Origin: a virus
Length of the DNA: 37,872 nt
UHGV virus genome: UHGV-0206450
Reading direction: 5' to 3' (one strand)
How positions within the stretch are numbered: the stretch's first letter is position 1; every line of letters starts with the position of its first letter. The notes beneath the pieces are model-generated. The model ran no database searches. It saw only the letters and a program-made list of their open reading frames with translations, and had not been told where the DNA came from. Of the stretch, positions 6,482 through 32,856 are shown piece by piece. The translations under genes were made by a program, and so were the position numbers.

Positions 6482-9400
6482 CTATGCAGCCTCCAACTCC
6501 TGTATTCTTATTTTTAATTGTTCCACTTCTTGCTTCAGCAATTGAATTTCACGTTCATGATCAGAGAGTATTACGTTGTGGTACATGGTTAAACGATCAT
6601 AAGCTAATCCTTCTACTTGACCTTTCTCATCGTAGAATACAACTTCTGTCATCCCTTTTTCGTGAAATTCATCAGCAATAAACCCATAGTATCGGCCTTT
6701 TACGTTCCCCGAACTCAATTCAAATTTATCAATCCATGATACTGGATTGATTTCCAAAATTTTCTTGGCATCAGCTACTATCTTATTAGCTACTTGAATA
6801 TTCATTTTATACTTACGAGCAGAGGTAATCCGACCAAGGGTCCCGTAACTTGTGACGCATACTTGCGGCCCACTTGAATAGGTTTTATTATAGATCGATT
6901 TAGACCATACACGAGCACCATTAGAGTCTGCACCAAAACTTATACCACCATATAACGAGGAATCACCGCCACCATTTATATCTGTACGTTGTGCATTTAG
7001 AGTTATTTCTCCGGAATCACCAGCCCATAAGTCAATATATTTCGACTGCATAGCTATTTTGTATCCAGCAGTTATCGTTGCTGTTGAAGCCATTTGCTTA
7101 ATGCTTTCACTAGCACCACTATTTACCTTTGAGGTACCGAGCCTAATAGTAGGTGCTAAATATCTGCGTCCACTAATCGTAGAATCATAGGCATAACCGC
7201 TAGCTAAGTAAACACCATGTCTCGCTATAACCCAAGCTTCCGAAAACAAACCGCCAGCCTCATCTTTGTTGACGTCTGATCCAGATTGTTTTACGCCAAT
7301 ACCAGCACCACGGATATTCTGTTTAGTATCAGCACCGTTTTTATCCCCATAACCTAACCATGTAGCATCAGTAAAAAAACTACTCGAGAATGGTTCTTGG
7401 TATTCTGTTGATGATAAAAGAACGGCTCTGTGTACAGATTGCCACACGCTTGTATTTGGATTAGCCATTTTCAAAGCAATTGCTGGTCTATTTCCTGACC
7501 ACATGCCAGCTTGCCAGATACCATTTTCTTTATACTGACCAGAATGTGTTTCGGTTGTCAACCCACCATAAGATACAGTCGCTTCACCAAATGTTCCAGT
7601 ATAAAACTCAATTTTACCGTTCATCAGATTATAACCTGCTGCTAAAGTGTTACCTGTATCATTTGGCGATAAATATTCACCTCTAGATGCAGTTACTCCA
7701 GTAGTAATGTTCATTTGAAAAGTATCATCTAAGTTTTTGATGATTCCCTTGTTGAAAATGACTTCACCAGTAGCAAGGTTTATAGATAAGTTAGTCCCAC
7801 TGATCGTTCCCGTAGTAATACTATTTGCATTTAGGTTAATAATATTAACATTTGCAGCATTTAACGTGCCTGTAGTAATTTTAGTCGCTGATAGACTGCC
7901 GATTTTGGCATCAGTGATTGCAGCATTCGCAATTTTAGCAGTTGATACAGAAAGGTCTGCAATTTGTGCATTTTTAATCACTCCGTTATCAATTGTTGTC
8001 TGACCTGTAATGTGAACTTTATTACCGGAAATCAGTATTGATTCAGTTGATACATTGATTTGGTTGACGACATCATTTTTAGAAACTTTAAAATTGATCG
8101 TGTCGGACAGTTGGGTAAACTGAGCAGATGTAACATCTGTATTTGCTTCATAGATATATAATTCTCGTAGCCTTACTGCTTTGCCGGCTTCTACCCAAAT
8201 ACTAAAAGCAGTGTATGTTGTGGCTTTGATAGTACCTTGAACCCATGTGAGATATCCTGCTCGAGGCGTAACCTTAATGTTTTCTCCCTCAGCTGAGCCA
8301 ATTTCTACTGTTCCGCCAGTACTTCCTGTGTTCATGTATAATTTGATGTTATAAGTTTTTCCGACAGTTAAAGCAACAGGTGTAGATCCCCAATAAACCC
8401 TTTGCTTAGCGGTTCCTGAGGTATTATCAATAAGAAATCCATTTGCATCATATTGCCCAGTTATCCCATACCCTTCTACTGTAGGCTTTGGATTCTGCTT
8501 CTGGAAGTCTGGATCAGGAAATTTATTGACTAGGTCTGCAATGCTTCCTTGAACTTCTGTAACTGTCTGTCTAATTCCACTAGCTGTTGCTTCAACTTGT
8601 GTAGCTTTTGTAAGAGCTGAATTAGCTGTTGTCTCAACGCTAGAAATCGTTGTTTTCAAACCATTGGCTGTTGTCTCGACTTGAGTTGCTTTCGTAAGAG
8701 CTGAATCGGCGGTATTCTTGACACTAGCTATGGTTTGAATAGTGCCATTTACAGTGGATTCAATTTGATTGACTTTCGAGACAGTTGCTAAATCTGCTGG
8801 TGCTGGTGACCAATCTTTGAACACTACGTTTGATTTAGTAAGCTTTGCCCATTCGATTGAGCTAGTTACTCCTGTAACAGAACCTTCTCCCACATAAATA
8901 TAAATAATATTTGTTACTGTGTTTGTGCCTTTTTTTCCTTTAAATTTAGCATAGTAGGTTCCATCTGTATCTTTAGTTAATCGTCCTACTAATGAAATGA
9001 GACCACCATCTAACCATATGCCAGCCCATGTTTTTCCTGCACCTAAAGTCATCTTTGCTCTAAATACGTAATCTTCGCCCTCAACCATCAATTCACTCAT
9101 AGCAAACGTGCTAATCAAATAAGACTCATTAGAAGCTGGAACATTTGAATTCAGAAATAGATTTCGATCGCTGGTTACCTGGTTAGCAAGGTTTGTCTCA
9201 ACACTTGTCAACGTCTGCTTAACACCGTCAACGGTTGATTCCAAAACGTTCGCCTTACTCAAGGCGCTGTTAGCAGTGTTAGTCACCGTTGCTATGGTTT
9301 GTTTTTGACCATCCACTGTGACGACTAAATCATTCAGTTTCTTCGTGGTACTTGTGGCAGTCGATTCAACATCCGTGATCCTTCCGGTTAAACCAGTGAC

Positions 9401-10843
9401 TGAGGTTTCAAGCGTTGCCGTCCTACCTTCGACAGCATTCGCCTTATTATAGGCTTCGTTAGCTTTGCTACTAATAGAATTAACTGTCCCATTGATCGTA
9501 GTAACATCGGAAACAAGACCATTGACATCAATCTGGATTTTATCGGCTTTAGCCTGTGCAGACTGTGCATCAGCTTTTGCTTGATCAGCGGCTTCTTTTG
9601 CTTCGTCTCCGGCTTTTTTTGCCTCATCGACTGATTCTTTTACTGCATCCGGATTGATAAATGGTACCCAATCAAAGCCATCCCAGTAATTCATGATGGT
9701 TTGTTCACCATCTACCTGATACCAGATATCGCCTTTATTTGTAGCTGTAGGTCTATCCGGACCTTGAAAAACCTTGTTTTTGCCATCAGCAGAAATCCAA
9801 GCCTGATTTGCAGTACTTATTGCGTTTTCTAATCCAGCTTGAACTTCCTTACGGTATTCATTTTCTTGATTGATCTTCTTTTGAATAATATTGTCAGATC
9901 CACATGATACATCATGATCAATAATATTCCCTTCAGTATCATAACTTGTGGTATATGACATGATTCGAATTTTTTGTTCAAATCCAAGATCCTTATTAAT
10001 TGCCATGATATAATCGCCCTCATGGGGTTGATCATAATCATAGCCGGCTCTTGTTAAATCTTCCATATCGATATCAACTGATATCCCATAAGAACTTTCC
10101 ACATCATTTTTTAGACGATCAATAAAATTACTTTCAACTTTATACCGTTCATCAACGATAGGATCGCCCTCAAGTTTTCCGTATAACTCAGCAAGCGGAC
10201 TCAAATACTCAACTATTAATCTCCCCTTAGATTCATCATCGGGATCAAAAAAAGCACCATAGCCTCTCAAATAGGTAATGAATGATCCGGGATCTTTTTC
10301 AATCCTAAGTTCATTCAAATTAAATCCTTTTTTGACTACAGTTGAAAGGTTTGTCCCTACTTTTTCAAGAATACGGACTATTTTTCCATTTACTGAAAAC
10401 TCTACTCCGGTTGATGAAATGAAATCTTTAAATAAATCCAACCGGTTCTTCATACCAAAACTTTCTTTTTCAAAAGATGGTATGGTTACTTCTAAGCGAT
10501 ATTCATAACCGCTACCATTGAAAATGAATTGCAGATAGGCATTAGCAGTATTTGAACCATTCATTTCGGAATAAATTACAGATTTTCTCAAATCAAAAAA
10601 GAATTCATGAACCGCATCGAACTCAACAACAATACGATTACCTTCGTCAATAGGATTTACATAGGTTAAACAATAATTTTCCTCTTCAAACTGTAATCGC
10701 CATCCACGACCAATACCTTCTAAAATTTCATCGTTTGTATAGATAGTACCGGATAAAGATTTTTCGCCATTCACGCCCTTTGTTTTCTGACACTCAACAA
10801 TTGCAGCGTGTTGTTTACCGTATTCATCAATAAAATTAATCAC
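6482..10843 (-). CDS. Tail-associated lysin/fibre (Tal) fused to a receptor-binding fibre, with a C-terminal intramolecular-chaperone (peptidase S74-like) domain
   Basis: Prophage-tail (Tal) N-terminal domain, then a coiled-coil and repeat shaft (repeated SALTKATQVE.TA.G units). The C-terminus (GFIADEFHE ... AYDRL ... ILSDHEREIQLLKQEVEQLKIRIQELE) is typical of auto-cleaving fibre chaperone domains. Confidence 0.85.
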   Translation of the reverse strand: MINFIDEYGKQHAAIVECQKTKGVNGEKSLSGTIYTNDEILEGIGRGWRLQFEEENYCLTYVNPIDEGNRIVVEFDAVHEFFFDLRKSVIYSEMNGSNTANAYLQFIFNGSGYEYRLEVTIPSFEKESFGMKNRLDLFKDFISSTGVEFSVNGKIVRILEKVGTNLSTVVKKGFNLNELRIEKDPGSFITYLRGYGAFFDPDDESKGRLIVEYLSPLAELYGKLEGDPIVDERYKVESNFIDRLKNDVESSYGISVDIDMEDLTRAGYDYDQPHEGDYIMAINKDLGFEQKIRIMSYTTSYDTEGNIIDHDVSCGSDNIIQKKINQENEYRKEVQAGLENAISTANQAWISADGKNKVFQGPDRPTATNKGDIWYQVDGEQTIMNYWDGFDWVPFINPDAVKESVDEAKKAGDEAKEAADQAKADAQSAQAKADKIQIDVNGLVSDVTTINGTVNSISSKANEAYNKANAVEGRTATLETSVTGLTGRITDVESTATSTTKKLNDLVVTVDGQKQTIATVTNTANSALSKANVLESTVDGVKQTLTSVETNLANQVTSDRNLFLNSNVPASNESYLISTFAMSELMVEGEDYVFRAKMTLGAGKTWAGIWLDGGLISLVGRLTKDTDGTYYAKFKGKKGTNTVTNIIYIYVGEGSVTGVTSSIEWAKLTKSNVVFKDWSPAPADLATVSKVNQIESTVNGTIQTIASVKNTADSALTKATQVETTANGLKTTISSVETTANSALTKATQVEATASGIRQTVTEVQGSIADLVNKFPDPDFQKQNPKPTVEGYGITGQYDANGFLIDNTSGTAKQRVYWGSTPVALTVGKTYNIKLYMNTGSTGGTVEIGSAEGENIKVTPRAGYLTWVQGTIKATTYTAFSIWVEAGKAVRLRELYIYEANTDVTSAQFTQLSDTINFKVSKNDVVNQINVSTESILISGNKVHITGQTTIDNGVIKNAQIADLSVSTAKIANAAITDAKIGSLSATKITTGTLNAANVNIINLNANSITTGTISGTNLSINLATGEVIFNKGIIKNLDDTFQMNITTGVTASRGEYLSPNDTGNTLAAGYNLMNGKIEFYTGTFGEATVSYGGLTTETHSGQYKENGIWQAGMWSGNRPAIALKMANPNTSVWQSVHRAVLLSSTEYQEPFSSSFFTDATWLGYGDKNGADTKQNIRGAGIGVKQSGSDVNKDEAGGLFSEAWVIARHGVYLASGYAYDSTISGRRYLAPTIRLGTSKVNSGASESIKQMASTATITAGYKIAMQSKYIDLWAGDSGEITLNAQRTDINGGGDSSLYGGISFGADSNGARVWSKSIYNKTYSSGPQVCVTSYGTLGRITSARKYKMNIQVANKIVADAKKILEINPVSWIDKFELSSGNVKGRYYGFIADEFHEKGMTEVVFYDEKGQVEGLAYDRLTMYHNVILSDHEREIQLLKQEVEQLKIRIQELEAA

Positions 10844-10855
10844 TCAATCACCTCC

Positions 10856-11695
10856 CTACTTATAGAGTTCAACGAAATTGAGTAGTTGAATTGACCCTTT
10901 AAAATTTGTTGTCAAAGCGATTTTACCACTTGCAGATGGTGTTAAAATAAAGTGCTCATAATTCGTTTTATCATTGACATTCAACGAATTTAGTGTTGTT
11001 TCTATCCCTTTAATCATCAATACATCGCCACTTGCCATAGGTGTTACAGCATGATAGATAAATGTTCTATCCCCAACTTTTACAGTCACATCACCGTTTT
11101 GGATAGCATTCGACGTGAGCTTCATTATCCATGGCCATTCTAATTGGCTACATTTTGCAGTTCCTGCGTAATCAATAGTTGATGAAACAGTAACTGATCT
11201 TGGAATAGTCTCCCCAAATGGAAGCTCTGCCGTTCTTCCTTCAAAGGAAAATTTCATTCTTAAACCTGCAGCCGATAATCCGACAAATGTATATGAAATC
11301 TCGTTTTCTACGATTATTTTATATCGATACTTATACGCTTGATGTGGAATAGCAAGTAAATTTAAATCGCTTGTTTTTTGACCAGGTAATTCAAAATCAT
11401 ACAGTCCAGCAGTAGGGATTAATTTGGTAATATAAAAAGGCTCATCATTGCTGATAAGCCCATTTATTTGGTCCTTCTTTTCTTCTAATGCATATGCACT
11501 TTGAACAACGAAAGTTCCTGAAATAACGATTCGTTTTTCTTTGTGTACTGCCCCGGAGAATATATATCCACTTCGGTTTGTTACTTCTCTTTTATTCGTG
11601 ATTATAGAAGATGAACTGTCTTGAAAGTCAGTGACAAGTAACCCAATGGAGGAAAGTTTCGTTTCAACTCCATCTTTTGTGATCAAAGCATCCAT
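10856..11695 (-). CDS. Distal tail protein (Dit)
   Basis: Lies between the tape measure and Tal. Sipho_tail-like size (279 aa). Confidence 0.7.
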   Translation of the reverse strand: MDALITKDGVETKLSSIGLLVTDFQDSSSSIITNKREVTNRSGYIFSGAVHKEKRIVISGTFVVQSAYALEEKKDQINGLISNDEPFYITKLIPTAGLYDFELPGQKTSDLNLLAIPHQAYKYRYKIIVENEISYTFVGLSAAGLRMKFSFEGRTAELPFGETIPRSVTVSSTIDYAGTAKCSQLEWPWIMKLTSNAIQNGDVTVKVGDRTFIYHAVTPMASGDVLMIKGIETTLNSLNVNDKTNYEHFILTPSASGKIALTTNFKGSIQLLNFVELYK

Positions 11696-11707: not shown

Positions 11708-14700
11708 TTAGTTAAAATAATCGTTTTTATTTTTATCACGTGCTTCTTTACGTTTAACTGTCGTGTAAATCTTATCTCCAACAATTTCATTGTGGACATA
11801 GATTTCATCCTTTTTGAGTTCTGATTCTGCGATATCTCGATCCATTTCATCAGTCAGGGTACTGATATTTTTATTAGTGAAAGTAGTATCACCAACCATA
11901 ACTGCTTCTGCTTGATACTGCTGCGCTTTGATAATGGATCCGAACTCGTTAGCTTGTTTGGCTACAAATCCAAACATTGACTGCATCCCTAGCCCAAGCC
12001 CTTTACCTAGCATTTCCCCCATCCAAGCAGTGACTCTGGAAGGTGAATGGATATCCAATGCCCTTTGAAGCGTTCTTCGTACATTAGCAGCGATACTATT
12101 TGCTACACTATAAATATATCCCGACGAACTCGAAAGCCCACTAGCAAGCCCAGAACCAGCGTAATAGCCGATACTGTTCATTTGGTATCGCAGACTTGAA
12201 AAGGCTGATACTATACGCGAAGATGCGCTTCTTGCTGTAGAAACCATCTTATTCATTCCATTGCTAAAGGCAGAAGCCATTTGAGAAGTGCTGCTGCTAA
12301 TTGAACGAGTTGCTTGGCTCATCGACTGCGTGCTTGCTTTACTTACGCTAGAAAAACCTTTGTTAACCGTACTTGATACTCTTTGCATTGCACTTGAAGC
12401 AGTTTGCTCCATGTTCTGCATAGACTGACCTACGCTTCTAGCCATTGATGTGATCTGTTTCGTAGAATTTTGATTAATGCCAGACGTGCTGTTATTAACA
12501 TTGTTCTGCATGGTATTCGCAGCACTTGTAGCGTTCTGTGTTGCTGTATTCATATTGCTAGTAACACTAGATTGTAGACTACCTAAAGAGCTCGTTACAT
12601 CACTGGCCATTGCAGAATAGTCACTAGTAGTATTAGATTTTGCATTCTTAGCGGCTTTTGTTGCATCTACCGAAGCAATGCTGCTTAAATCTGATACTGA
12701 ATTTTGCATGCTAGACATCGATTTACTAACGCTAGAGTTCGCTGTACTAAAACTGCTTGCGACTGATTGAGTAGCTGACTGTGTATCAGAATCCATTTCA
12801 TCGCCTTTGGATTTTGATTTGCCGGTGATTGTATCCCACAAATTACTAAATCCATTCTTGATTCCATCCCAAGCACCTTTTAATACTCCGGGAATAGCTT
12901 CTAAAACACCGCTCGCAAGAGATTTAACAATATCCCAACCAGCAGCTAAAATACTAGGCAACATTTGAATGATAGTTGCTACCAATGACATGATAATTTG
13001 AATACCACTTGAAATGATATTAGGTAGATTTTGTACTATACCGCTAACTAAAGCTTGGATAATCTGAACCGCTGCTTGTAAGATCATTGGTAAATTTTGC
13101 ACAATGAAATTACATAAGGCTTGAACGATTTGAACTGCACCGTTCAACAATTGAGGAATGTTAGCCATCAATCCATTGATTAAAGTCAAGATCGCATTCA
13201 AAGCTACTGGGAGTAACTGAGGTAACAATTGTGTTAATCCATTAATTAAACTTAATAGAATTTGAATACCGGTCTGAATAATCTGTGGTAGATTTGAAAC
13301 AATATTTCCAACAAAAGCTTCTAGAATTTGTTGCACTGAACTAACGATTTGCGGAATATTTTCTACAATACCGTTGATTAAGCTTAGCAATAAATTCATA
13401 CCCATCACTATCAATTGTGGCAATGCGCTTGCTAATGATGTCAGTATAGTTGTAATAATTGTCAAAGCTGAACTAATTAAAGAAGGTAGATTTTGAGCCA
13501 CACCGCCAACTAACGATCCAATAACGTCTACACCAGCTTGAACAATCAATGGCAACATTGTGGCAATCGTATTTGCTAATTTACTGATCAGCTGTGTACC
13601 GCTACTTATAAGTTGAGGTAATTGTGACGTAATCCCTTGAACAAATTTAGAAATTACTTCAGGACCTTTTGTCGTGACCATTTTTAACAAATCATCAATT
13701 TGAGATCCAAACTGATTATTTACTAATCCAAGTCCGGCGACAACAAGCCCTAAAATTGCTGCAGGTCCAACGGCTGCTAAGGCAACTTGCATGATCGTAG
13801 CCATTGCAGAAGTCATGCCGCCTAGCGCACCCATTCCTACAGTAGCCGCAGAAGAAAGTCCACCACCGATTTTAGGAAACAGACCAACTAATCCGCTCAC
13901 GTTTCCGGATACTAAACCGAAAGCTGAACTTAACGGACCAGATAAAATACCAGAAAAATTAATAAATCCTGTTGACAAAGTTTTTAGAACTGGCAAAGCG
14001 CTGTTTAGAGTTAATGCACCACCCAATAATCCAGCTATTGGAAGAATCCCAGAGATTACACTCTGCATATTTTTCAAAGACTCGCTAGACATCTCAGTGC
14101 CATTGACAAAATGATCTAAGATTGGAATAACACTATCAATTGCATTGTTAATCTTGTCCATATTGAAATCACCAATTTTATCGGTGATCTTACTAATGGC
14201 ATCAATCCCAACTTGGGAAAGTTTATCAAATGACGGTTGCAATTTATTTGTTAGAGTCTCTCGCAGACCATCCATTGCTTGCCCAACAGTTTTATACTCA
14301 GTCGCCATTTTGCTAAATGTGTCATTGGTTCCTACCTTCGTTATAGCATCAAAGAAATCTTGGGTCTTGATTGTACCGTCTTGAACAGCAGTGACCATTT
14401 CAGACGTTGACATTCCCATTTCCTTTGCTACTGCAGCAATACCAGCAGGTGTTTGTTCCAGCATCAACTTGAAGTCTTGCCATTGAACCATTGGTTTAGC
14501 AGCCATTTGGGTTGCCTGTTGACTAAGAGTTGTCATAGCTTGCGTTGGATTTTCAGCGGCTGCTGCCAAACCACCAAATCCCATTACCAATTTATCAGTA
14601 TTTTTTATACCTACCGCTGCTAACTGGCTGTAAGTTGTTGCCATCTCAGAAGCTGAATAAATTGTTTGAGTTGCAAAGTCTTGTAATTCTTTTTTTACTC

Positions 14701-15403
14701 CAGCAATTTCTTTCTTGCCCATGCCGATATTTTCCATATTGGCATTGAAAGTCTTCCAAGTGGCTGACCCTTCATTCAAATCTCCAACTAGCCCAGAAAT
14801 AGCACCAGAAATTAAAGAAATTCCTTTTTGTGCAATTGCATAAGCAGCACCGATACCAGCAACTTTTTTGATCAATCCGCTAGTGGCATCAGTTACTTTG
14901 TTGGTTTTGCTTCCCATGTTACTTAAGGCTGTTGCAGCTTTCGTTCCTGCTTTGTTAAAAGCACTAGTTAAACCACTACCGACTTTGGTACCAATCGTAG
15001 TAGTAGTTTTAACCATTCCATTCAAGCCTTTTGCAACTAGGCTCGAAGTATTACTTGCAGCTTTCGATACTTCTCCAAAGCCTTTTCTTATGGGCTGAGG
15101 TATTTTTTCTCCAATAGAAGCAATTACCCTTTGGATTTGACCACCAGCTGAGCTAAATGGCTCAACCATACTAGTTTTGAGACCACTTAACTTTGAAGGA
15201 ACGGCTGAACTGAGTTGCCCCATAATGCTACCAACCTTTGAAACAATACCATTTGTGCTGTTTGTCATGCTAGATTGAACTTTGCTCATAGCAGATGTAG
15301 TACTGCTTACAACATCAGACATAGCTTTTTTATAGTCGCCGGTATCTGCACCAATCAGCGCTTTTATAGATCCAGTGATTTCTCCTGCTACCATATATCT
15401 CAC
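11708..15403 (-). CDS. Tape measure protein
   Basis: 1231 aa, with a long helical region of periodic repeats (..NLPQII..GIQIL.SLINGL..), downstream of the G/T chaperone pair. Confidence 0.9.
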   Translation of the reverse strand: MRYMVAGEITGSIKALIGADTGDYKKAMSDVVSSTTSAMSKVQSSMTNSTNGIVSKVGSIMGQLSSAVPSKLSGLKTSMVEPFSSAGGQIQRVIASIGEKIPQPIRKGFGEVSKAASNTSSLVAKGLNGMVKTTTTIGTKVGSGLTSAFNKAGTKAATALSNMGSKTNKVTDATSGLIKKVAGIGAAYAIAQKGISLISGAISGLVGDLNEGSATWKTFNANMENIGMGKKEIAGVKKELQDFATQTIYSASEMATTYSQLAAVGIKNTDKLVMGFGGLAAAAENPTQAMTTLSQQATQMAAKPMVQWQDFKLMLEQTPAGIAAVAKEMGMSTSEMVTAVQDGTIKTQDFFDAITKVGTNDTFSKMATEYKTVGQAMDGLRETLTNKLQPSFDKLSQVGIDAISKITDKIGDFNMDKINNAIDSVIPILDHFVNGTEMSSESLKNMQSVISGILPIAGLLGGALTLNSALPVLKTLSTGFINFSGILSGPLSSAFGLVSGNVSGLVGLFPKIGGGLSSAATVGMGALGGMTSAMATIMQVALAAVGPAAILGLVVAGLGLVNNQFGSQIDDLLKMVTTKGPEVISKFVQGITSQLPQLISSGTQLISKLANTIATMLPLIVQAGVDVIGSLVGGVAQNLPSLISSALTIITTILTSLASALPQLIVMGMNLLLSLINGIVENIPQIVSSVQQILEAFVGNIVSNLPQIIQTGIQILLSLINGLTQLLPQLLPVALNAILTLINGLMANIPQLLNGAVQIVQALCNFIVQNLPMILQAAVQIIQALVSGIVQNLPNIISSGIQIIMSLVATIIQMLPSILAAGWDIVKSLASGVLEAIPGVLKGAWDGIKNGFSNLWDTITGKSKSKGDEMDSDTQSATQSVASSFSTANSSVSKSMSSMQNSVSDLSSIASVDATKAAKNAKSNTTSDYSAMASDVTSSLGSLQSSVTSNMNTATQNATSAANTMQNNVNNSTSGINQNSTKQITSMARSVGQSMQNMEQTASSAMQRVSSTVNKGFSSVSKASTQSMSQATRSISSSTSQMASAFSNGMNKMVSTARSASSRIVSAFSSLRYQMNSIGYYAGSGLASGLSSSSGYIYSVANSIAANVRRTLQRALDIHSPSRVTAWMGEMLGKGLGLGMQSMFGFVAKQANEFGSIIKAQQYQAEAVMVGDTTFTNKNISTLTDEMDRDIAESELKKDEIYVHNEIVGDKIYTTVKRKEARDKNKNDYFN

Positions 15404-15675
15404 CTCCTATTTCTAAAGTGTTCCAAAGCTTTCAAAGCTTTATCCAAGCGCTTGTTACCTTTTTTCGTTTGTTTAGCATTTCGATCAAATGCTTTCTTAA
15501 TTCGATTTTCTGCTGATTTTTTATTAATAATTTTTTTCATTTGTGGCTTTTTAGCATTTAAGATATAGCGCAAATTAAATCCAAAAATAGCATTTTGTTC
15601 CTGTTTGTCTAATTCACGCAAACTCAAGCCTTCAAGAATTGCTTCAAGTTCCCATAAGTAACAATTCATAATCAA
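15400..15675 (-). CDS. gpT-like extension of the tail assembly chaperone, reached by a -1 frameshift from the gpG frame
   Basis: The basic ORF lies in the -1 frame relative to 15711..16184, and that frame stays open across the G stop codon. This is the canonical G/G-T arrangement upstream of the tape measure. Confidence 0.5.
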   Translation of the reverse strand: MIMNCYLWELEAILEGLSLRELDKQEQNAIFGFNLRYILNAKKPQMKKIINKKSAENRIKKAFDRNAKQTKKGNKRLDKALKALEHFRNRR

Positions 15676-15710
15676 ATCAATATCAGTTAAACCATACCTT
15701 GCACAGTTGA

Positions 15711-16184
15711 CTATGAGATCTCTTTCGTGATTCTTTCCGCTAATTTCTTCAACTCGTCCGCTTGAAGCTTCGACTCTTCCGTTTCTCGAGCCGCTATAAC
15801 TTTGTGAGCTTTCTCCAGATTCTCCTTGTATTTGCGGATCTTGCTCACGAAAAAACCTGATGCTAACATTTCTTCTTTCAGATCAGCAAAAATTTGATTG
15901 TAGGCTTCCTCTTCACCCATTCCGCTATTAACAAGATTGTCTGTATAATTTTGTACAGCTTCTAAAACATCATTTTCGGTAAAATTCTTATCGACAAGTT
16001 GTAACAAGTTGACTAAAGCATCATCTTCTTTCTCTAGAACTTGAACAAAAAGAATCCCGGCACCATCATTTTGAGAATTTCCATCCGCATCTTTTGATGC
16101 TAATTTTTTGTTAGCCTTAAAATTTAAAGCGTAGTTGAATTTGATATTGCAATCTTTGTTTTTTACTTTGATATCAAAAGACAT
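15711..16184 (-). CDS. Tail assembly chaperone (gpG-like)
   Basis: Acidic 157-aa protein between the major tail protein region and the tape measure. GGAGG RBS. Confidence 0.7.
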   Translation of the reverse strand: MSFDIKVKNKDCNIKFNYALNFKANKKLASKDADGNSQNDGAGILFVQVLEKEDDALVNLLQLVDKNFTENDVLEAVQNYTDNLVNSGMGEEEAYNQIFADLKEEMLASGFFVSKIRKYKENLEKAHKVIAARETEESKLQADELKKLAERITKEIS

Positions 16185-16217
16185 TTAACCATTCCTCCTA
16201 AATAAAAAAGAGCCAGT

Positions 16218-17093
16218 CTAACGACTAACTCTTTTAATTGCTTCCACATATTTTGCTGACGCTTTTCTTTTATTAACAAAAGATAGATCATCTTCAAATG
16301 GTGATGTATCAACGTACTTGCCTTTAAAGAATAGATCGCGATCTTTTTCGGTTACTCCTGCATTATGAAGAATTTTTACTTGTTTACATTTCTCAATTGA
16401 ATCCGTAGAAAAGCAAAAAGATAATTCTTCGTGGATTTTAGGTCCAACATTGAAATACATCATATTCCAAAGTTGCGCCCACATTTCAGCAGTCCATTTT
16501 TGAATGTTGCTATTCACTTTTTTAAAGTATTGATAAAGACGATTTGAATCGAAATAAACTTTTTTCCAATACTCCGCTCTAGGATTCTTTATAACCCACT
16601 GTGCACCACCAGAATTAAAATTAATGGTTTCCAACGATTCCACTGAAACATTTACGATCTCAGCCATACCTTTCAAAATAGATTCTCCATTTTCACAACT
16701 GCGAATATAATCAAGATTTAGGTAGTGGTTGCAATCACTGCAATACCAAACATCTTCTTTTGAAGTCATTTTACGCAAATCAATCTTTTGATTGAAAATG
16801 ACATCCGAATCAATATAAACATACCGCTCTTTTTCACGTTTAGGATCTTCTTTCAAGTATTGCCACCACAGATAAGGCTTGATAGAAGGAATATAACCTT
16901 TATCCTCTCTATCATCTCTATATACGTGAACTTCAACATTGTATTTATCAGCTAAATAAGCAGGAATTGTTGAATCATGTTCGCTAAAAAGCAGTACAAT
17001 ATCATTGATACCGAACGACTTCAAGTTAGTTAAACAAACTTCAAGTTCCCACTTGAAACGATTGATAGCAGGTTGACAAAGAATATATTTCAT
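16218..17093 (-). CDS. Putative glycosyltransferase-like protein (291 aa) embedded in the tail gene cluster
   Basis: A hydrophobic strand followed by a DxD motif (RYVYIDSDVIF). Sits immediately after the major tail protein gene, and both major tail and major capsid proteins end in oligo-Thr tracts. The assignment rests on motif and position only. Confidence 0.4.
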   Translation of the reverse strand: MKYILCQPAINRFKWELEVCLTNLKSFGINDIVLLFSEHDSTIPAYLADKYNVEVHVYRDDREDKGYIPSIKPYLWWQYLKEDPKREKERYVYIDSDVIFNQKIDLRKMTSKEDVWYCSDCNHYLNLDYIRSCENGESILKGMAEIVNVSVESLETINFNSGGAQWVIKNPRAEYWKKVYFDSNRLYQYFKKVNSNIQKWTAEMWAQLWNMMYFNVGPKIHEELSFCFSTDSIEKCKQVKILHNAGVTEKDRDLFFKGKYVDTSPFEDDLSFVNKRKASAKYVEAIKRVSR

Positions 17094-17102
17094 TTTTCTC
17101 AC

Positions 17103-17726
17103 CTACTCCTGCGTCGTTGTGGTGGTAGTTGCTTGTGTTGTGGTCGTAGTCGTTTGAATATCATCGTAGTCTCCAGTTGTTTCACCTGGGTTTTGGTAAT
17201 CATACAGTGCTTCAATTGCTGAAATATCGTCATTTGATAATGGGAATTTACCTTCTTGAAGTTTTCCGATAATGTTTAATGTGTAAGAAGCTTCCACAAG
17301 ATCATCACCGTCCGCAATCTCCACATCATCGGGCATACCGTAGCCGAATTCCGCTGGATATAGCTTTACATCAGTTTCTCCTTCGGCTTCTTCAGCAACA
17401 GAATCATCAATTTCCACACGCCAAACTTTTACAGACGTTCCATTTTTCTTTGCATCTTTGACAACTTTGATCGCTTCGTCTTTCGGTACAAAATATTGTG
17501 TCAAATCAATCGAATGCTCGTCAGTTGATTTGATGATAATACGCCCCATTTTAGTTTGCTCATCAATATTTTCTCCGCCATATGTTACGCCCCCTTCTGT
17601 TTGAAAAGCAGGCAATAGCGCAGGTGAGCCAATTTCTGCAGAAACTGATTGGATAAAATACCAGACTTTCTTAGCAGTCAATGCTTTACCTGTAGTTTTT
17701 TTGACGCCATTATTTACAATAGCCAT
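17103..17726 (-). CDS. Major tail protein with a C-terminal oligo-threonine tail
   Basis: Position and size (207 aa). C-terminus DIQTTTTTTQATTTTTTQE, encoded by mixed Thr codons. Confidence 0.8.
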   Translation of the reverse strand: MAIVNNGVKKTTGKALTAKKVWYFIQSVSAEIGSPALLPAFQTEGGVTYGGENIDEQTKMGRIIIKSTDEHSIDLTQYFVPKDEAIKVVKDAKKNGTSVKVWRVEIDDSVAEEAEGETDVKLYPAEFGYGMPDDVEIADGDDLVEASYTLNIIGKLQEGKFPLSNDDISAIEALYDYQNPGETTGDYDDIQTTTTTTQATTTTTTQE

Positions 17727-17738
17727 GTTTCATTCCTC

Positions 17739-18089
17739 CTAAATTATTAGTTCGTTGATTCTGAAAACTACATGATAGACTTCTCGACCAACTGAGCTAT
17801 CAATAAGTACTTGGTGAGTAAGCCGCTTGTTTAACGCAACTTTCGTTTTAAAAATAGCTTCTTCTAAATTTGTCCGACTGTTAATCGGATAAAATAAATC
17901 GATCTGCAAACTTGTATCAACGATCGCTGGTCCAAATTTAGCACTTGGTGAATCGTCACCTGTATGAGCGCCTATCACATAAAAAGGCTCCTTGATCGAT
18001 TGATCTGGGAGCTTAAATTCTACTGGTATTCCTGTAGCTGAGAGCTTAATAGAAATATTTTTCAAGTATTCTGTCATTGGAGAGTACAT
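17739..18089 (-). CDS. Tail terminator / head-tail joining component (gp17-like)
   Basis: 116 aa, lying between the HK97 gp10-like gene and the major tail protein. Confidence 0.5.
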   Translation of the reverse strand: MYSPMTEYLKNISIKLSATGIPVEFKLPDQSIKEPFYVIGAHTGDDSPSAKFGPAIVDTSLQIDLFYPINSRTNLEEAIFKTKVALNKRLTHQVLIDSSVGREVYHVVFRINELII

Positions 18090-18093
18090 ACAA

Positions 18094-18438
18094 TCATCCT
18101 CTCACTAATTTGGTAAGTCGTTTTTGAAGTATTGGCCAATCTGCTTTTAATGCCGGAAATAGAAAAGGTTGTGCAAACATGAATCGTGTTCCCATCTCTA
18201 CAAAAATAGAATAGTTCGCTGGCGAAATAACTTCTGCTTGCATCAATCCGATTACACTAGCATAAATATTATTCGACATCCACCCGGTATCCCAAGGAGC
18301 TAATTTCTTACTTCCCTTTTCTACACGTAAACTAGATAGCTTAATTTCTTGATCAATTGCTTTTTCTAATTGTGGTGCTTTTCGCTGAACGTTTCGAATA
18401 AATTGCTTCATGCCTTTTATTTTCACGCTTTTACTCAT
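18094..18438 (-). CDS. HK97 gp10-family tail completion protein
   Basis: VEMGT ... AQPFL motif. ATG 18438 overlaps the upstream stop as ATGA. A GTG at 18471 is an alternative start. Confidence 0.6.
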   Translation of the reverse strand: MSKSVKIKGMKQFIRNVQRKAPQLEKAIDQEIKLSSLRVEKGSKKLAPWDTGWMSNNIYASVIGLMQAEVISPANYSIFVEMGTRFMFAQPFLFPALKADWPILQKRLTKLVRG

Positions 18439-18716
18439 GTCAAAATCACCACCGTTGAATTTCGGTGCCACTTCGTCTGATAAACAGATCGCTCCAGACC
18501 GTCATATTCAATTTTAGAAAAACCTTTGTGGATCCCTTGAATATGCAATTTGAACGCCTTCTGATTGTACTTTCCAAAGATTCCTATTTGTTCATTACTT
18601 GATAATCCAGTTTTGCCGCACGGCTCAATTACTTTCTTTTCCTCAATGTCGTCATCGCCAAGATAACCAGGGACCTTTCTTTCATAGGTTATCTTGACGC
18701 GATCATTGTAATTCAA
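18435..18716 (-). CDS. Head closure / head-tail adaptor protein
   Basis: Begins MNYNDRVKI, typical of head-closure proteins. The TTG start overlaps the connector stop as TTGA, with a GAGG RBS. Confidence 0.55.
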   Translation of the reverse strand: MNYNDRVKITYERKVPGYLGDDDIEEKKVIEPCGKTGLSSNEQIGIFGKYNQKAFKLHIQGIHKGFSKIEYDGLERSVYQTKWHRNSTVVILT

Positions 18717-19066
18717 CTAAAAAACCTCGTGATACCTTTGCCGGCACGAATTGTGGGCTTAGTATACTCATCGAAAATATCCAGATACTCATTCAAATAA
18801 GATGGTTCCCAAGAATAGGAACGACCTTCCTCACTATCTGCAGTAGTCCCCTCACTGTTGCGTTTATTAAAACGTTTGATAGCGACATCCCTTTGAATAT
18901 AGATCAGGTCTGTTGGAATAGTCTTGTGCTTGTCAGTATCATTTTTTGCAGCAAATTGATTTAAAACGGATAAGATCCGTTGCTCGCTATCCTCAATAAT
19001 CAAATTAAGCAACGGATCTTGTAACGCATCTTGAATACCTAGAAACAGCTTGATGTCTTCTAGCAT
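18713..19066 (-). CDS. gp6-like head-tail connector (DNA-packaging adaptor)
   Basis: Position directly after the major capsid gene. Size 117 aa. Confidence 0.6.
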   Translation of the reverse strand: MLEDIKLFLGIQDALQDPLLNLIIEDSEQRILSVLNQFAAKNDTDKHKTIPTDLIYIQRDVAIKRFNKRNSEGTTADSEEGRSYSWEPSYLNEYLDIFDEYTKPTIRAGKGITRFFS

Positions 19067-19080
19067 TTCTATCCCCTACC

Positions 19081-20040
19081 TTATCCTTCGGTCGTTGTAG
19101 TCGTTGTAGTTGGCGCTACGGCTTCGATAGTTGCTTCTACTACGCCAGCAGGAATTTCTGGGAACAAGACTAATGCATTCATGAATAGTGATTCGTAAGT
19201 TGCATTGCGCAATGTACGTCCGCGAGTAGCAGAAATGAACCCTGTTTCATCTGTGAAATCTACAAAGATATCACCTAGATCGCTAGCTTTCATATCCAAA
19301 TAAGCTAATACGATATTGTCAACTGCAGTTGAATAAACTTTACCTTCTGGAATTGCGTTTAATACAACAACATTAGTAGCTCCCAAGAAGTTTTTCAGCA
19401 ACGTCATTCCAAAAACATTCGATGCATCAGCTAAGACTTTTGTGTCACCAAGATATGTCGCTGCATCCATTGGATTAATAAATGAAACGAATTGTGCACC
19501 GTCAAACTCTTCAAATGTGCTTAATTTTCCCCAAGATTGAGCCAATGCTTTTTGCAATCCGTCTGCGGGAATTTTTGTTGGCGCTGTGCCTAAAAAGTCA
19601 ACAAATTTTGTTTTAATTCCACCTTGGATTTGACGTAATAATTTATTATCAGCTTGATCAATTGCTAATGATGCTCCATGCCGAGCAATCGATTCAGCAG
19701 TCACAGCGCGACGCCATTTGTTAAACGTTACTTGATAAGACTTATCTTTTGCACGAGTAACTTTAGATAGAGGAATGTCTTCACCTTCTGCGACATTTCC
19801 AGATTTTAAATCAGTCGTCCATTTGTACATTTGGATTTTCATATCACTTGATAATGGTTCTAAACGTGTAACGCCCAACAGTTCAAGTAATTCTTTGATA
19901 CCGGCTTCAAATCGGTTAACGAAATCGATCGACTTGATTTCCCCAAGATCGTCCATGGTTGTTAAATTTGTTTCAGCAGCAAAAAACTGTAGTTGCATTT
20001 TCATGAATCGTTTTTTATTTGTTTTTGACATGTTTTTCAT
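19081..20040 (-). CDS. Major capsid protein with a C-terminal oligo-threonine tail
   Basis: N-terminal MKMQLQFFAA motif, shared with the scaffold protein. C-terminus AVAPTTTTTTTEG with mixed Thr codons. GGAGG RBS. Confidence 0.8.
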   Translation of the reverse strand: MKNMSKTNKKRFMKMQLQFFAAETNLTTMDDLGEIKSIDFVNRFEAGIKELLELLGVTRLEPLSSDMKIQMYKWTTDLKSGNVAEGEDIPLSKVTRAKDKSYQVTFNKWRRAVTAESIARHGASLAIDQADNKLLRQIQGGIKTKFVDFLGTAPTKIPADGLQKALAQSWGKLSTFEEFDGAQFVSFINPMDAATYLGDTKVLADASNVFGMTLLKNFLGATNVVVLNAIPEGKVYSTAVDNIVLAYLDMKASDLGDIFVDFTDETGFISATRGRTLRNATYESLFMNALVLFPEIPAGVVEATIEAVAPTTTTTTTEG

Positions 20041-20052
20041 TTGTTGTTCCTC

Positions 20053-20673
20053 CTAAAATAGTTCTCTATTTGCAGCAATCATTCGTTGGCGTTCAGCGGT
20101 GTCTTTGATCGCCATGATTTCCGCTTTGGTCATTTGACCAGTACCAGTACCAACTTTTGTTTTGTTTTTAGAAGCCAATCGTTCATTGACCTTTGCTTCT
20201 ACCGCTTTGTCCCATTCGGCACGAAAAGCTTTCACATCTTCTAAAATATCTTCGGCAGTATCTCCGGTTATACGATGGGCAAAATCTGCCGGAATTCCTT
20301 GAGCAGTTAGTTGTTTGCCTTTTTCAACAAACAATTGCTCTTTCCGGAATTCTTCTTTTTCTTTCTCGAACTCCTCTTTTTCCTTTTGAATCAAGGCTTT
20401 TTGGCGATCTTCTTCAGAAAGCTTCGCCAATCTAGCAGCTTCATTTTTTTGTTCTTCTAATTCTTTTTGCCATCTTGATTTCTTGTTTTTAATGATAGAA
20501 TCAACATCTTTGTCATCTTTAAAACCAAATTTTGCCTTGATGGCCGCCAATTGTTCTTCATTCAATTCATCCACATTGAAATCTGGTGGTGTTTGATCTC
20601 CCGGGTCGTCTCCTCCACCATCTTCAGCGAAAAATTGTAGATTCAATGGCATAAATAACTTCTTTTTCATCAT
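20053..20673 (-). CDS. Scaffolding protein
   Basis: N-terminal MPLNLQFFAE. Highly charged coiled coil (EEQKNEAARLAKLSEEDRQKALIQKEKEEFEKEKEEFRKEQ). Confidence 0.75.
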   Translation of the reverse strand: MMKKKLFMPLNLQFFAEDGGGDDPGDQTPPDFNVDELNEEQLAAIKAKFGFKDDKDVDSIIKNKKSRWQKELEEQKNEAARLAKLSEEDRQKALIQKEKEEFEKEKEEFRKEQLFVEKGKQLTAQGIPADFAHRITGDTAEDILEDVKAFRAEWDKAVEAKVNERLASKNKTKVGTGTGQMTKAEIMAIKDTAERQRMIAANRELF

Positions 20674-28904: not shown

Positions 28905-29195
28905 TTATTCCTCGCTTTCTGCTATTTCCACTTCTTCCGCTGAAAGAAAACTAGCAAGACAATTTGCATCACAAAACATATTGTCAGTTCCATCTTCAAA
29001 CTGGAAAAACTTAGCTATCATAAAATTGTCTCTAACCGTTAAATACGATTGATTAGTCCATGCTCCATCATTGAACAATGCGTTGCCACAATTAGCACAG
29101 ATGGAACTTTCTTTCTCAAAATTGGGATATACCATAATCTTTTTCCTTTCTGCTATTTCGTCGGATAGCTGACTTACTTCATAAATACTAACCAA
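28905..29195 (-). CDS. Small Cys-rich (zinc-finger-like) protein
   Basis: CANCGN ... CDANC motifs. Confidence 0.45.
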   Translation of the reverse strand: MVSIYEVSQLSDEIAERKKIMVYPNFEKESSICANCGNALFNDGAWTNQSYLTVRDNFMIAKFFQFEDGTDNMFCDANCLASFLSAEEVEIAESEE

Positions 29196-29626
29196 TGTGT
29201 TTTGCTCCTCTTATTACCAAACAACGGTTCTTCACCGATTGCCGCCAATACATCTTGTAAAGAAATTTGATCTTCATTCCATTTGAATATCAAGCTACCA
29301 TTGGGTTTTAGAACTCTCATACATTCTGCGAACCCTTGGCGGATATCTTCTGGCCAAAGCTCATCTAACTTACCGTACTTTTTTGCTAGCCAAGAATTGT
29401 CGCCTGCATGGATCAAGTGTGGTGGATCAAATACAACCATGTCGAATGTGTCAGATTCAAAAGGCATATCTCGGAAATCTCCGACAATATCTGGATTAAC
29501 ATCCACAACATGTCCAGTTTCAAGTTCCTCATAATGCCGTCGAATATCCATAAAAGTTACATTGGGATTCTGCTTATCAAACCAGAACATTCGGCTGCCG
29601 CAACATGCGTCTAATATCTTTTTCAT
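29174..29626 (-). CDS. Small SAM-dependent methyltransferase with a DPPH motif (probable DNA amino-methyltransferase, N6A/N4C type)
   Basis: N-terminal LDACCGSRMFWF (motif I-like) and FDMVVFDPPHL (motif IV-like). It overlaps the stop of the adjacent C5-cytosine methyltransferase gene. Confidence 0.5.
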   Translation of the reverse strand: MKKILDACCGSRMFWFDKQNPNVTFMDIRRHYEELETGHVVDVNPDIVGDFRDMPFESDTFDMVVFDPPHLIHAGDNSWLAKKYGKLDELWPEDIRQGFAECMRVLKPNGSLIFKWNEDQISLQDVLAAIGEEPLFGNKRSKTHWLVFMK

Positions 29627-30366
29627 AGGCTTTCTATCTCCATAATCGCTTTGAAAATTGGATAGATTTGTTGCGGCACTACAGCATTCCCTAATGATTT
29701 AACTCGGTCCACTTGATCGGGAATCCCATTATAAGCTCGGCATAATCTGGGTTGATATACTGCGGATCTTCGATTGATTTCCTCAAAGCTTCTTGCGTGA
29801 AACTCCCGCGATAATTCTCCCCCCCAAGGTATCTGGATCTCGCTGCACCTTTCCACATCGATGCCGTAGGAGTTGGCAACAATGAATGTTCGAAGCCTTT
29901 GATGTTCGGCACCGACGGCCAAAGCTGGAAGTACAAACGTTGTTGTTTGGTAATCGAAGTTTTCCAGGTCAGATATCGTACGGTCGAGTTCCATATTGGC
30001 GAAGTTAGCAACATTTTCTCCAACAACCCAATTGGGCCTGAGTTCTTCGACAACTCTAGACATTTCTGGCCAGAGATCACGGTCATCTTCTTTGCCTTTT
30101 TGCTCCCCGGATACACTGTAAGGTTGGCAAGGGAATCCTCCGTGAATAAGCTCAATTGTTCTGTTTCGATCGATAACACCTTCTTTCTCCAATGCTGCTC
30201 TATTGAGATCCTTTACATCTTTAAAGATTGGCACATTAGGCCAATGCTTATTTAAAACTTTCCTTGGGAAATCAGCATATTCGCAGAATGCTACTGTTTC
30301 AATACCGGCCCATTCTGCTGCTAAATCCATGCCGCCAATCCCCGAAAAAAGCGATAATGCTCTCAC
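29623..30366 (-). CDS. DNA cytosine-5 methyltransferase (orphan, phage type)
   Basis: Motifs LFSGIGG (I), GFPCQPYS (IV), ENV (VI) and LGNAV (X). Confidence 0.9.
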   Translation of the reverse strand: MRALSLFSGIGGMDLAAEWAGIETVAFCEYADFPRKVLNKHWPNVPIFKDVKDLNRAALEKEGVIDRNRTIELIHGGFPCQPYSVSGEQKGKEDDRDLWPEMSRVVEELRPNWVVGENVANFANMELDRTISDLENFDYQTTTFVLPALAVGAEHQRLRTFIVANSYGIDVERCSEIQIPWGGELSREFHARSFEEINRRSAVYQPRLCRAYNGIPDQVDRVKSLGNAVVPQQIYPIFKAIMEIESL

Positions 30367-31857: not shown

Positions 31858-32856
31858 TCAACTTACAAACTTTTGATGGGAGATCTTCACTTCATCATCA
31901 TTAATCATCGAGTAGGCCATCGTTGTCTCAATATTTTCATGACCGAGGAACCTAGAAACGAGTTCTATAGGCATCCCATGTCTTCTCGCAAGTGTTGCGG
32001 CTGTCCTTCTAAATCTGTGTGGATGAACATTCAAAACACCTGCACGCTCCCCTAGACGCTTGACCAACTTTTGGATTCCGGCAGTAGTCATCTCTTTCCC
32101 TCTCGTCTGTCCATAAAATAATGGACCAGTGATGTGAGGCATCTCTTTTAAGTAATGATTCAATGCTAGCTTTGCCTTGGCATTAAAGTATAAAGTTCTT
32201 TGCTTGTTGCCTTTTCCAATCACTTCAATCGAATCATTTTCTTGGTCATAGTCACTAAAATTTAGAGAAACCAATTCAGAGACTCGACATCCAGTACTCA
32301 ATAGCAGTTCGATGATGAGCGTTTCTTTTGCATTAAAAGCAGCACTTCGCAGCTTTTCAACTTCAAGCTCACTGAATTCTTGTTTGCGCCTTTTGGGTAC
32401 TTTTATCTTTTCCACCCTTGCGCCAGGATCTCGATCGATAAACTCTTCGATATAAAGCCAGTGAAAGAACCTAACGATGCAGCCACGTTCACGAGCAAGC
32501 GTACCTTTAGATATTCGATCCTGAATTTCCCTGTTAGCAATAAACAATCGGATGTCATTTGCGGTGATATCCTTAAACGGCTTTCTAAGCTTGCTCATGA
32601 AGAAATTGATCGTCTGCATATAAAGTTTCAATGTTCCGTCTGAAAGCCCCTGAATCTTCTTTGACACCATAAATTGATGGTATGCAGCTGCATCGGATCT
32701 CTCATCATAAATCACTACATCAGTTGAAGTTTTAACTAAGTCGAAGGAGTCCAAATGCATCAATAGGAGCATGTTTACTTTCCTAAGTTGTTCTGGATCC
32801 AAATCATTTTCTAAATCTCCAACAATTTTATTAATCAGCGACTCCTTACTGGTCAT
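31858..32856 (-). CDS. Tyrosine site-specific recombinase (XerC/D-like, phage integrase family)
   Basis: Core-binding N-terminal domain and a catalytic C-terminus (HPHRFRRTAAT ... LGHENIETTMAYS) carrying the R..H.R.Y signature. Co-oriented inside the early operon. Confidence 0.85.
   Translation of the reverse strand: MTSKESLINKIVGDLENDLDPEQLRKVNMLLLMHLDSFDLVKTSTDVVIYDERSDAAAYHQFMVSKKIQGLSDGTLKLYMQTINFFMSKLRKPFKDITANDIRLFIANREIQDRISKGTLARERGCIVRFFHWLYIEEFIDRDPGARVEKIKVPKRRKQEFSELEVEKLRSAAFNAKETLIIELLLSTGCRVSELVSLNFSDYDQENDSIEVIGKGNKQRTLYFNAKAKLALNHYLKEMPHITGPLFYGQTRGKEMTTAGIQKLVKRLGERAGVLNVHPHRFRRTAATLARRHGMPIELVSRFLGHENIETTMAYSMINDDEVKISHQKFVS

Follow-up and report, generated by a model that had tools for sequence, protein, structure and literature searches.

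A predicted GT-A glycosyltransferase and oligo-threonine tails of virion proteins: a putative virion glycosylation module in phages of Gram-positive bacteria

Introduction

To our knowledge, glycosylation of virions in tailed phages has so far been documented experimentally for actinobacteriophages only, in which it blunts recognition by antibodies and in which the tail-tube protein is reportedly, in the work of Freeman et al., one of the targets. As related in three papers (PMC11256854, PMC13313380, PMC12894461) after Freeman et al. (2023; Cell Host Microbe 31:1216), virions of Che8 and other cluster F1 mycobacteriophages are O-glycosylated by glycosyltransferases (GTs) of the phages themselves; PMC11256854 further states that the capsid protein carries glycans and that the GT genes of the F1 phages are located close to the 3′ end of the genome. 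Here we describe a stretch of DNA of 37 872 nucleotides, UHGV virus genome UHGV-0206450 (hereafter the window), and in particular its positions 16218..20040, where an open reading frame (ORF) of 291 codons follows the gene of the major tail protein (MTP) and where both the MTP and the major capsid protein (MCP) end in runs of threonine (Thr). A sequence-only reading of the same DNA had proposed that the product of this ORF is a GT which modifies these runs. Our analysis supports this proposal: from structural modelling and comparative genomics we consider it probable that a GT encoded by 16218..17093 O-glycosylates the oligo-Thr tags of MCP and MTP. Literature searches gave no earlier description of virion glycosylation in Firmicutes phages, nor of this GT family; the sequence-only reading had voiced the opinion that virion glycosylation had not been described for phages of low-GC Gram-positive bacteria.

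Results

The features on which the argument rests are listed below; A1 and A2 denote two alignments of GT homologs, A1 comprising 46 homologs (53–76% identity) and A2 comprising 81 cluster representatives (31–49% identity).

19081..20040, minus strand: MCP, 319 amino acids (aa); phrog_544 'major head protein', E 1e-70
19084..19110, minus strand: oligo-Thr tag TTTTTTTEG of the MCP, proposed O-glycosylation acceptor
17103..17726, minus strand: major tail (tube) protein MTP, 207 aa; phrog_238, E 9e-50; Pfam Phage_tail_2, E 3e-6
17106..17153, minus strand: oligo-Thr tag TTTTTTQATTTTTTQE of the MTP, proposed O-glycosylation acceptor
16218..17093, minus strand: predicted GT-A glycosyltransferase, 291 aa; phrog_4417, "unknown function"; the proposed 'writer'
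16803..16811, minus strand: DSD (DxD) motif, D98/D100 when counted from the GTG at 17102 and D95/D97 from the ATG; putative metal and nucleotide-sugar site
16365..16367, minus strand: His246 in KILHNAGV, invariant in A1 and A2, at the end of strand E244-246; candidate third metal ligand
16213..17157, minus strand: indel cassette of 945 bp that comprises the GT gene, a short spacer and, as the Thr tag, the final 18 codons of the MTP
16206..16235, minus strand: terminator-like hairpin with T-run, overlapping the GT stop codon just 5′ of the ribosome binding site of the tail chaperone
15400..16184 (15711..16184 and 15400..15675), minus strand: G/T-like pair of tail assembly chaperones, the downstream boundary of the GT gene

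The AlphaFold2 model of the 291-aa product, built on the 46-sequence alignment, showed a single Rossmann-like alpha/beta/alpha domain with GT-A topology (pLDDT 96.4, pTM 0.92). Structure comparison gave scores of 15.2 with the Skp1 alpha-galactosyltransferase, 14.8 with GlyE and 14.7 with LARGE1, followed by GT6 enzymes and PBCV-1 A64R (11.7), and Foldseek was concordant with a GT-A assignment when the PDB or viral models (BFVD library) were searched. On the strength of this model the ORF almost certainly encodes a GT-A-fold protein, and it is the retaining GT8/GT24 group that the modelled fold resembles most. A tail structural or an esterase domain, which the sequence-only reading had named as findings that would speak against its proposal, was thus not what the model revealed. 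The candidacy of the product as a tail structural protein was rejected in view of the enzyme fold; moreover, in phage 1706 the neighbours of the GT homolog are annotated as virion structural proteins and the homolog itself is not.

The DxD motif lies within YVYIDSDVIF (16794..16823, minus strand), directly after strand E93-96 of the model. Both aspartates are invariant in A1 (n=46); in A2 (n=81) one never varies and at least 90% of the sequences have the other. The earlier observation of a DxD in a hydrophobic-strand context, consistent with GT-A, thus agrees with the model, and the motif is conserved across the family. His246 may be a third metal ligand as in GT8 enzymes, and its spacing from the DxD resembles that in LgtC (D103, D105 and H244).

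Of the two checks that the sequence-only reading had suggested as alternatives, structure prediction thus returned a GT-A fold with high confidence, and the profile searches returned no curated GT family. Pfam yielded only a spurious zinc-finger match (E 0.1) and NCBIfam none, and PDB sequence profiles searched from two alignments gave chance matches only (a kinetochore protein and TAL effector repeats). None of the 81 family representatives matched Glyco_transf_8 or Glyco_transf_24 at E<=1, in a search whose positive controls WaaJ and WaaO were matched at 1e-63 and 1e-77, and global hhalign against a WaaJ/WaaO mini-profile produced no meaningful alignment. The only curated-family signals of the GT family were weak matches of four of the 81 A2 representatives to the plant HPAT family PF23452 (best E 1.3e-4; none for the window protein) and matches of two A2 members to DUF6492. 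The family comprises 865 clusters at 50% identity, and many members are fusions of 500–780 aa, for which Pfam partners were recognized in four of ten scanned; these partners are GT2, Glyco_transf_7C, radical SAM/SPASM and methyltransferase domains, which fits a glycan-building role. By tblastn, 77 matches were found in 50 697 phage records, all in Firmicutes phages except for one Arcanobacterium record, organised like Staphylococcus Sextaecvirus phages, and one Chryseobacterium record. Without exception the deposited homologs are annotated as hypothetical proteins.

The MCP ends in ...EAVAPTTTTTTTEG, the final residues being TTTTTTTEG, and the MTP ends in ...DIQTTTTTTQATTTTTTQE. The Thr codons are ACT ACA ACG ACT ACA ACG ACC in the MCP and ACG ACT ACG ACC ACA ACA followed by ACT ACC ACC ACA ACG ACG in the MTP, all four Thr codons thus being used, which bears out the earlier statement that both proteins end in oligo-Thr of mixed codons. 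Because the codons are mixed, the view that the tracts arose by slippage or from low-complexity DNA was rejected. When all six frames of the 37.9 kb window were searched, runs of five or more Thr residues were confined to these three tracts, and about 7e-4 runs of six would be expected by chance in the late proteins.

The association of such tails with the GT was examined in several sets of loci. In the first, 81 GT-carrying loci (80 IMG/VR loci and phiFL1A), one or two ORFs with oligo-Thr tails were present on the same strand in 81 out of 81 cases, although in most of these loci the capsid protein is an unrelated protein of 395 aa (phrog_10), the tail protein is likewise unrelated (phrog_117) and the GT gene follows the capsid gene. 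A control set of 74 viral contigs was picked solely for the presence of a homolog of the window MTP (49–97% identity). Here the GT and a tagged MTP occurred together in ten contigs and were both absent from 64, with no discordant case (uncorrected Fisher p 1.4e-12), and the corresponding numbers for the MCP were ten, 40 and none (uncorrected Fisher p 9.7e-11). Both are absent from locus L110, a relative whose MTP is 97% identical to that of the window but ends in ...DIKTTPAP and which has no GT. When the 81 loci, the 74 contigs, nine annotated phages and the window were pooled, 100 of the 165 loci had both GT and tag, 64 had neither and one had the GT only; the tailed ORFs number 168, share the strand of the GT in every case and belong to 20 BLAST-distinct protein families. 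On a tree of MTP cores of the window's MTP family the GT-plus-tag state changed at least three times, and, judged by these sequences, GT and tags have been gained or lost together at least three times within this one family.

In Bacillota reference genomes (one per species) 48 of 51 GT loci had tails by a strict criterion, the usual carriers being the MCP, the MTP and a protein of ∼105 aa; tails of the TSTTTSTTT type in Staphylococcus aureus fall outside this criterion. The GT and tails occur in virulent and temperate phages alike (VPE25, 1706, iLp84, bIL285, phiCTP1, Semele and Sextaecvirus), where the tracts are distributed as follows.

VPE25: Thr tract on the MTP, ending TTTDTTTTTTTTTTAGK
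bIL285: Thr tract on the MTP
1706: tracts on a protease-capsid fusion and on the MTP, each ending TTTTTTTTTHHD
iLp84: tracts on the MCP, on the MTP and on a small phrog_14018 protein whose gene immediately precedes the GT
phiCTP1: Thr tracts on three structural proteins
Herelleviridae phage Semele: tracts on two small proteins encoded immediately before the GT
Sextaecvirus phages: an internal tract in the protease/scaffold protein, and tracts on the MTP and on a small protein whose gene immediately precedes the GT

Taken as comparative genomics, this constitutes strong evidence for a link between GT and tag, and it suggests that sugar-coated particles may be made by many phages of Gram-positive bacteria. 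In the Enterococcus phage VPE25, a candidate for therapy, the GT homolog is located right after the capsid gene (L156, 8738..9610) and is annotated as 'prophage pi2 protein 34'.

Comparison by blastn with the GT-less relatives L110, L087 and L082 defined the boundaries of the 945-bp cassette, which is replaced in these loci by ∼87 bp between flanks of 84–91% identity. The GT-less relatives carry C-terminal extensions of similar length and other composition, such as APTVPDDGGAGE on the MCP. The residues that follow the last Thr run were identical in 39% of within-genome pairs versus 5.8% of pairs between genomes, with capsid and tail proteins sharing the endings SK/SK, HHD/HHD, QA/QA, SHA/SHA or SGAGA/SGAGA; loci showing such shared endings are L157 (iLp84; 6374 and 9822), L159 (1706; 6528 and 7975) and the genome loci L170-L217. 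In iLp84, 24 identical nucleotides are common to the MCP and MTP tails. These matching endings suggest intragenomic copying or gene conversion of the tag, a shared recognition element, or both, and in these sequence comparisons Thr tag and GT form a single portable module.

The GT ORF is located between the MTP gene and the tail chaperone pair, and the phrog and Pfam assignments of the neighbours agree with the position, between major tail protein and G/T chaperones, which it had been given earlier. The ATG at 17093 is likely to be the start codon because it lies 9 nt past the MTP stop, is preceded by AGGAG 12 nt to its 5′ side, and yields a protein of the same length as the nearest database protein, P0001 of Enterococcus gallinarum (99% identical and likewise 291 aa), even though the ORF extends further to a GTG at 17102. 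The hairpin at 16206..16235 has a stem of 13 pairs (−16.7 kcal/mol, z −4.5), and the GT-less relative L110 shows a smaller hairpin with a T-run at the equivalent position. Such a structure at the end of the GT gene and before the chaperone gene probably functions as a terminator or attenuator, which would mean that the GT is co-transcribed with MCP and MTP, and its conservation in L110 would place the GT cassette upstream of a conserved attenuation point that separates the abundantly expressed MCP-to-MTP genes from the less abundantly expressed tail genes.

The window as a whole is a nearly complete temperate siphophage or prophage, of Enterococcus, with ∼38% GC. A megablast search with the 5.3-kb region found no DNA match in the 50 697 phage records, and the window is therefore not a deposited phage. 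Its other features are:

2240..3595, plus strand: large serine recombinase, which adjoins the repressor at one end of the element
plus strand: S24 repressor
6482..10843, minus strand: Tal
10856..11695, minus strand: Dit
11708..15403, minus strand: tape measure
between MCP and MTP, minus strand: head-tail connector genes
20053..20673, minus strand: scaffold
minus strand: GH25 endolysin, holin, tail, head, packaging and early genes

Within the chaperone pair, 15711..16184 matches phrog_183 'tail chaperone' (E 4e-22) and, below threshold, Pfam Phage_TAC_12, and the pair also matches phrog_2567. A protein of the tyrosine 'Phage_integrase' family is encoded at 31858..32856 (minus strand) inside the early/replication region and represents a second site-specific recombinase of the element. 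At 29174..30366 (minus strand) a C5 cytosine DNA methylase ORF aligns with no more than the N-terminal half of its Pfam model (1-164 of 324), and generic S-adenosylmethionine (SAM) methyltransferase models match the next ORF, of 150 aa; this may be a split or frameshifted methylase.

Among distant homologs, that of Lactobacillus phage 521B (L164, 11437..12972; 30% identical) marks the sole GT-positive locus without an oligo-Thr tail among the 165. The gene directly upstream of it is annotated as an Ig-domain protein, at the place where other phages have the small Thr-repeat phrog_14018 protein. The Bacteroidota homologs (30–36% identity) are fusions of 540–610 aa in bacterial loci with ABC exporters. 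Thr/Ser-rich tracts are nevertheless found next to distant homologs in L165, L247, L230 and L243. In L230 (Sphingobacterium detergens) an ORF of 82 aa at 2250..2498 has 13 consecutive Thr residues, and in L243 (Mucilaginibacter) an ORF of 85 aa, which starts 414 nt upstream of the GT, ends in KITTTTTSSAPATQ; these small Thr-run ORFs near Bacteroidota homologs may encode glycosylated secreted peptides. Locus L165 (2409..10000) belongs to an 85-kb phage contig with a T4-type portal, in which a GT-GT2 fusion (P0185) directly follows proteins of 1528, 757 and 236 aa, all three with repeated T/S-rich linkers such as TTTTSTSSTTTTTAPYTGSS. In L168, a metagenome contig from ENA, a family member of 763 aa (P0217, 10001..12292) is part of a bacterial locus with a C39-peptidase ABC exporter, a hexapeptide acyltransferase, other GTs and a LanC-like gene, a context that resembles peptide (bacteriocin-type) maturation more closely than a phage.

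Discussion

If the 16218..17093 product acts on the virion proteins as proposed, it would do so as a soluble, metal-dependent cytoplasmic enzyme expressed late, from the transcript that carries the MCP and MTP genes. Its donor would be drawn from the nucleotide-sugar pool of the host, because the phage encodes no other sugar enzyme; no GT besides 16218..17093 was found in the window. The oligo-Thr C-terminal tags of MCP and MTP, the most abundant virion proteins, would be O-glycosylated before or during assembly, and in other phages the tags of decoration proteins would be modified likewise in the cytoplasm. The resulting particle would carry a dense sugar coat over head and tail, for which shielding from antibodies, proteases and bacterial sensors, better solubility and mucus binding are candidate roles. 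The analysis shows the fold, the conservation of the motif, the order of the genes, the limits of the cassette and the co-occurrence; we infer the part of the Thr tags as acceptors, the O-glycosidic nature of the linkage, the timing of the modification and the role of the coat.

Several points weigh against such a scheme. At the sequence level no curated GT family was matched in Pfam, NCBIfam or the PDB profiles, and the sole local hhalign match to Escherichia coli WaaJ (GT8), which placed fYxDSDIIF on LYLDADVVC and with it the DSD on the DxD of WaaJ (E 0.016), is weak, with a probability of only 2.9%. The DxD and His246 would be at the catalytic centre to judge by conservation and topology. 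Many of the loci counted for co-occurrence are near-identical Enterococcus prophages, and the counts carry no correction for phylogeny. Below ∼40% identity, in 521B and in Bacteroidota, GT homologs have no oligo-Thr tails on nearby structural proteins. Staining of ten phages, which may or may not include carriers of the GT, gave no glycoproteins (PMC12894461). Finally, a single GT may add just one sugar per Thr, so that 'coat' would be too strong a word.

An unlikely explanation is that the enzyme is a real GT acting on virion proteins but that the oligo-Thr tails serve as a docking or recruitment tag or as a flexible spacer, the sugar being attached elsewhere on MCP, MTP or another virion protein. 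Co-occurrence does show a functional link and not the modified residue, and the matching post-Thr residues within a genome could be a recognition element. However, the hydroxyls of Thr are standard acceptors of O-glycosylation, the Thr run is the sole feature common to the 20 unrelated tagged families, and several phages have, as the tagged partner, a small protein made largely of Thr repeats, all of which argues for the tails themselves as acceptors.

Slightly less probable still is a target other than protein, be it a polymer of the host cell wall such as teichoic acid or the enterococcal polysaccharide antigen (EPA) in lysogenic conversion or superinfection exclusion, or phage DNA, with the Thr tails as an unrelated trait of the lineage. 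Prophage-encoded GT-A enzymes that modify wall polymers are generally known, and enzymes of lipopolysaccharide or O-antigen synthesis (LgtC and WbbM) are among the closest folds. For VPE25, its authors proposed DNA modification by two 'nucleotide sugar synthetase-like' ORFs, which they discussed as DNA modifiers only and one of which may or may not be the GT homolog (PMC4999554). Yet the GT gene belongs to the late structural operon, where it immediately follows a Thr-tailed gene, and is not in a lysogeny or moron position, and its homologs are present in the virulent phages VPE25, 1706 and Semele, to which conversion does not apply. As to DNA, no hydroxymethylase, dNMP-modifying or other hypermodification gene was found in the window, only the C5 methylase fragment and the small methyltransferase. 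An unrelated trait would also be hard to reconcile with the gain and loss of the GT coupled to tails on two separate genes at least three times in one MTP family, and with the presence of the MTP tag and the GT within one indel. Lysogenic conversion and DNA modification were rejected on these grounds.

That the GT-A fold is catalytically inactive and functions as an assembly chaperone or lectin-like binder of Thr-tailed proteins, or that the tails are unmodified hydrophilic 'fuzz', is very improbable, for although the protein has no sequence membership in curated GT families, its DxD aspartates and His246 are invariant or nearly so at 31–49% identity, as expected of a working metal/nucleotide-sugar site, and its relatives are fused to other glycan-building domains.

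Returning to glycosylation of the Thr tags, a bolder version of it can be put forward only tentatively, as a possibility to which we give somewhat less than even weight. In this version the system is a portable 'tag-and-writer', in which the tag marks any virion protein for modification by the new GT-A family; tag and GT would recombine jointly among unrelated capsid, tail-tube and decoration proteins across Bacillota phages, the residues after the Thr run would act as a specificity code, and the same logic would extend to secreted glycopeptides of Bacteroidota.

If tag glycosylation is real, sugar-coated particles would be common in phages and prophages of enterococci, lactobacilli, lactococci, staphylococci, listeriae, clostridia and many Bacillaceae, with consequences for the ecology of dairy and probiotic phages. 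For phage therapy it would bear on immunogenicity and clearance, VPE25 and its relatives being carriers of the GT. In virion proteomics C-terminal peptides would be missed and masses shifted, and the annotation of phrog_4417, now labelled "unknown function", would be affected. Lastly, a tag of 7–16 residues together with one soluble enzyme would offer an attractive means of glyco-engineering proteins and phage particles in the cytoplasm.

Comparison with described systems

Like Che8 and its relatives, the present system involves a phage-encoded GT (here recognized at the level of the fold), and it is the virion proteins of highest abundance that are modified (here presumably); in both, modification is necessarily cytoplasmic and precedes release, and a glycan layer over the particle is expected. 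The differences begin with the enzyme family, since tblastn found no mycobacteriophage homolog of the window GT among the 50 697 records; this corrects the sequence-only reading, which had suggested that the same system may operate here. Several GTs and a methyltransferase are involved in the Che8-type system and a single GT here. The sequence-only reading had also assigned the mycobacteriophage GTs to the structural operon; since PMC11256854 locates the F1 genes close to the 3′ end of the genome, the placement of the window GT inside the tail/head operon, beside its presumed substrate, is a difference from the known system and not a similarity. The presumed acceptor is a short, nearly pure oligo-Thr tag, and the hosts are Bacillota and not Actinobacteria.

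The retaining GT8/GT24 enzymes LgtC (1g9r), glycogenin (3u2t), the catalytic domain of UGGT (6fsn), WbbM (6u4b) and LARGE1 have the same fold at only 9–16% identity to the window GT. Together with the lack of Pfam matches to GT8 or GT24 and the low hhalign probability with WaaJ, this means that the window GT, as far as sequence comparison can define families, is a separate, previously unannotated family outside GT8 and every curated family. Plant HPAT (PF23452) similarly O-glycosylates low-complexity peptides, but its acceptor is hydroxyproline and its donor UDP-arabinose, and the sequence signal is below a reliable threshold.

In Gram-positive cocci, GlyE of Streptococcus pneumoniae (5gvv) acts on PsrP in the glycosylation of serine-rich repeat adhesins. 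These adhesins are huge, secreted, and first primed by the GT-B pair GtfA/GtfB, whereas here tags of 7–16 residues on phage structural proteins would be served by one enzyme. Another virus-encoded GT-A enzyme, A64R of chlorovirus PBCV-1 (2p6w), is involved in glycosylation of the major capsid protein, but this is a giant virus of eukaryotes whose N-linked glycans are atypical, the enzyme's structural similarity is weaker, and the enzyme is not part of a tag-plus-enzyme cassette.

From the GTs by which prophages modify teichoic acid or O-antigen in lysogenic conversion, the window GT differs by its place in a late structural operon and by its homologs in virulent phages, and from the glucosyltransferases of phage DNA by its setting, as no gene of a hydroxymethyl-pyrimidine pathway was found in the window. 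Virion glycosylation itself is known from mycobacteriophages, and what appears to be new is the GT family together with the proposed tag module in phages of Firmicutes.

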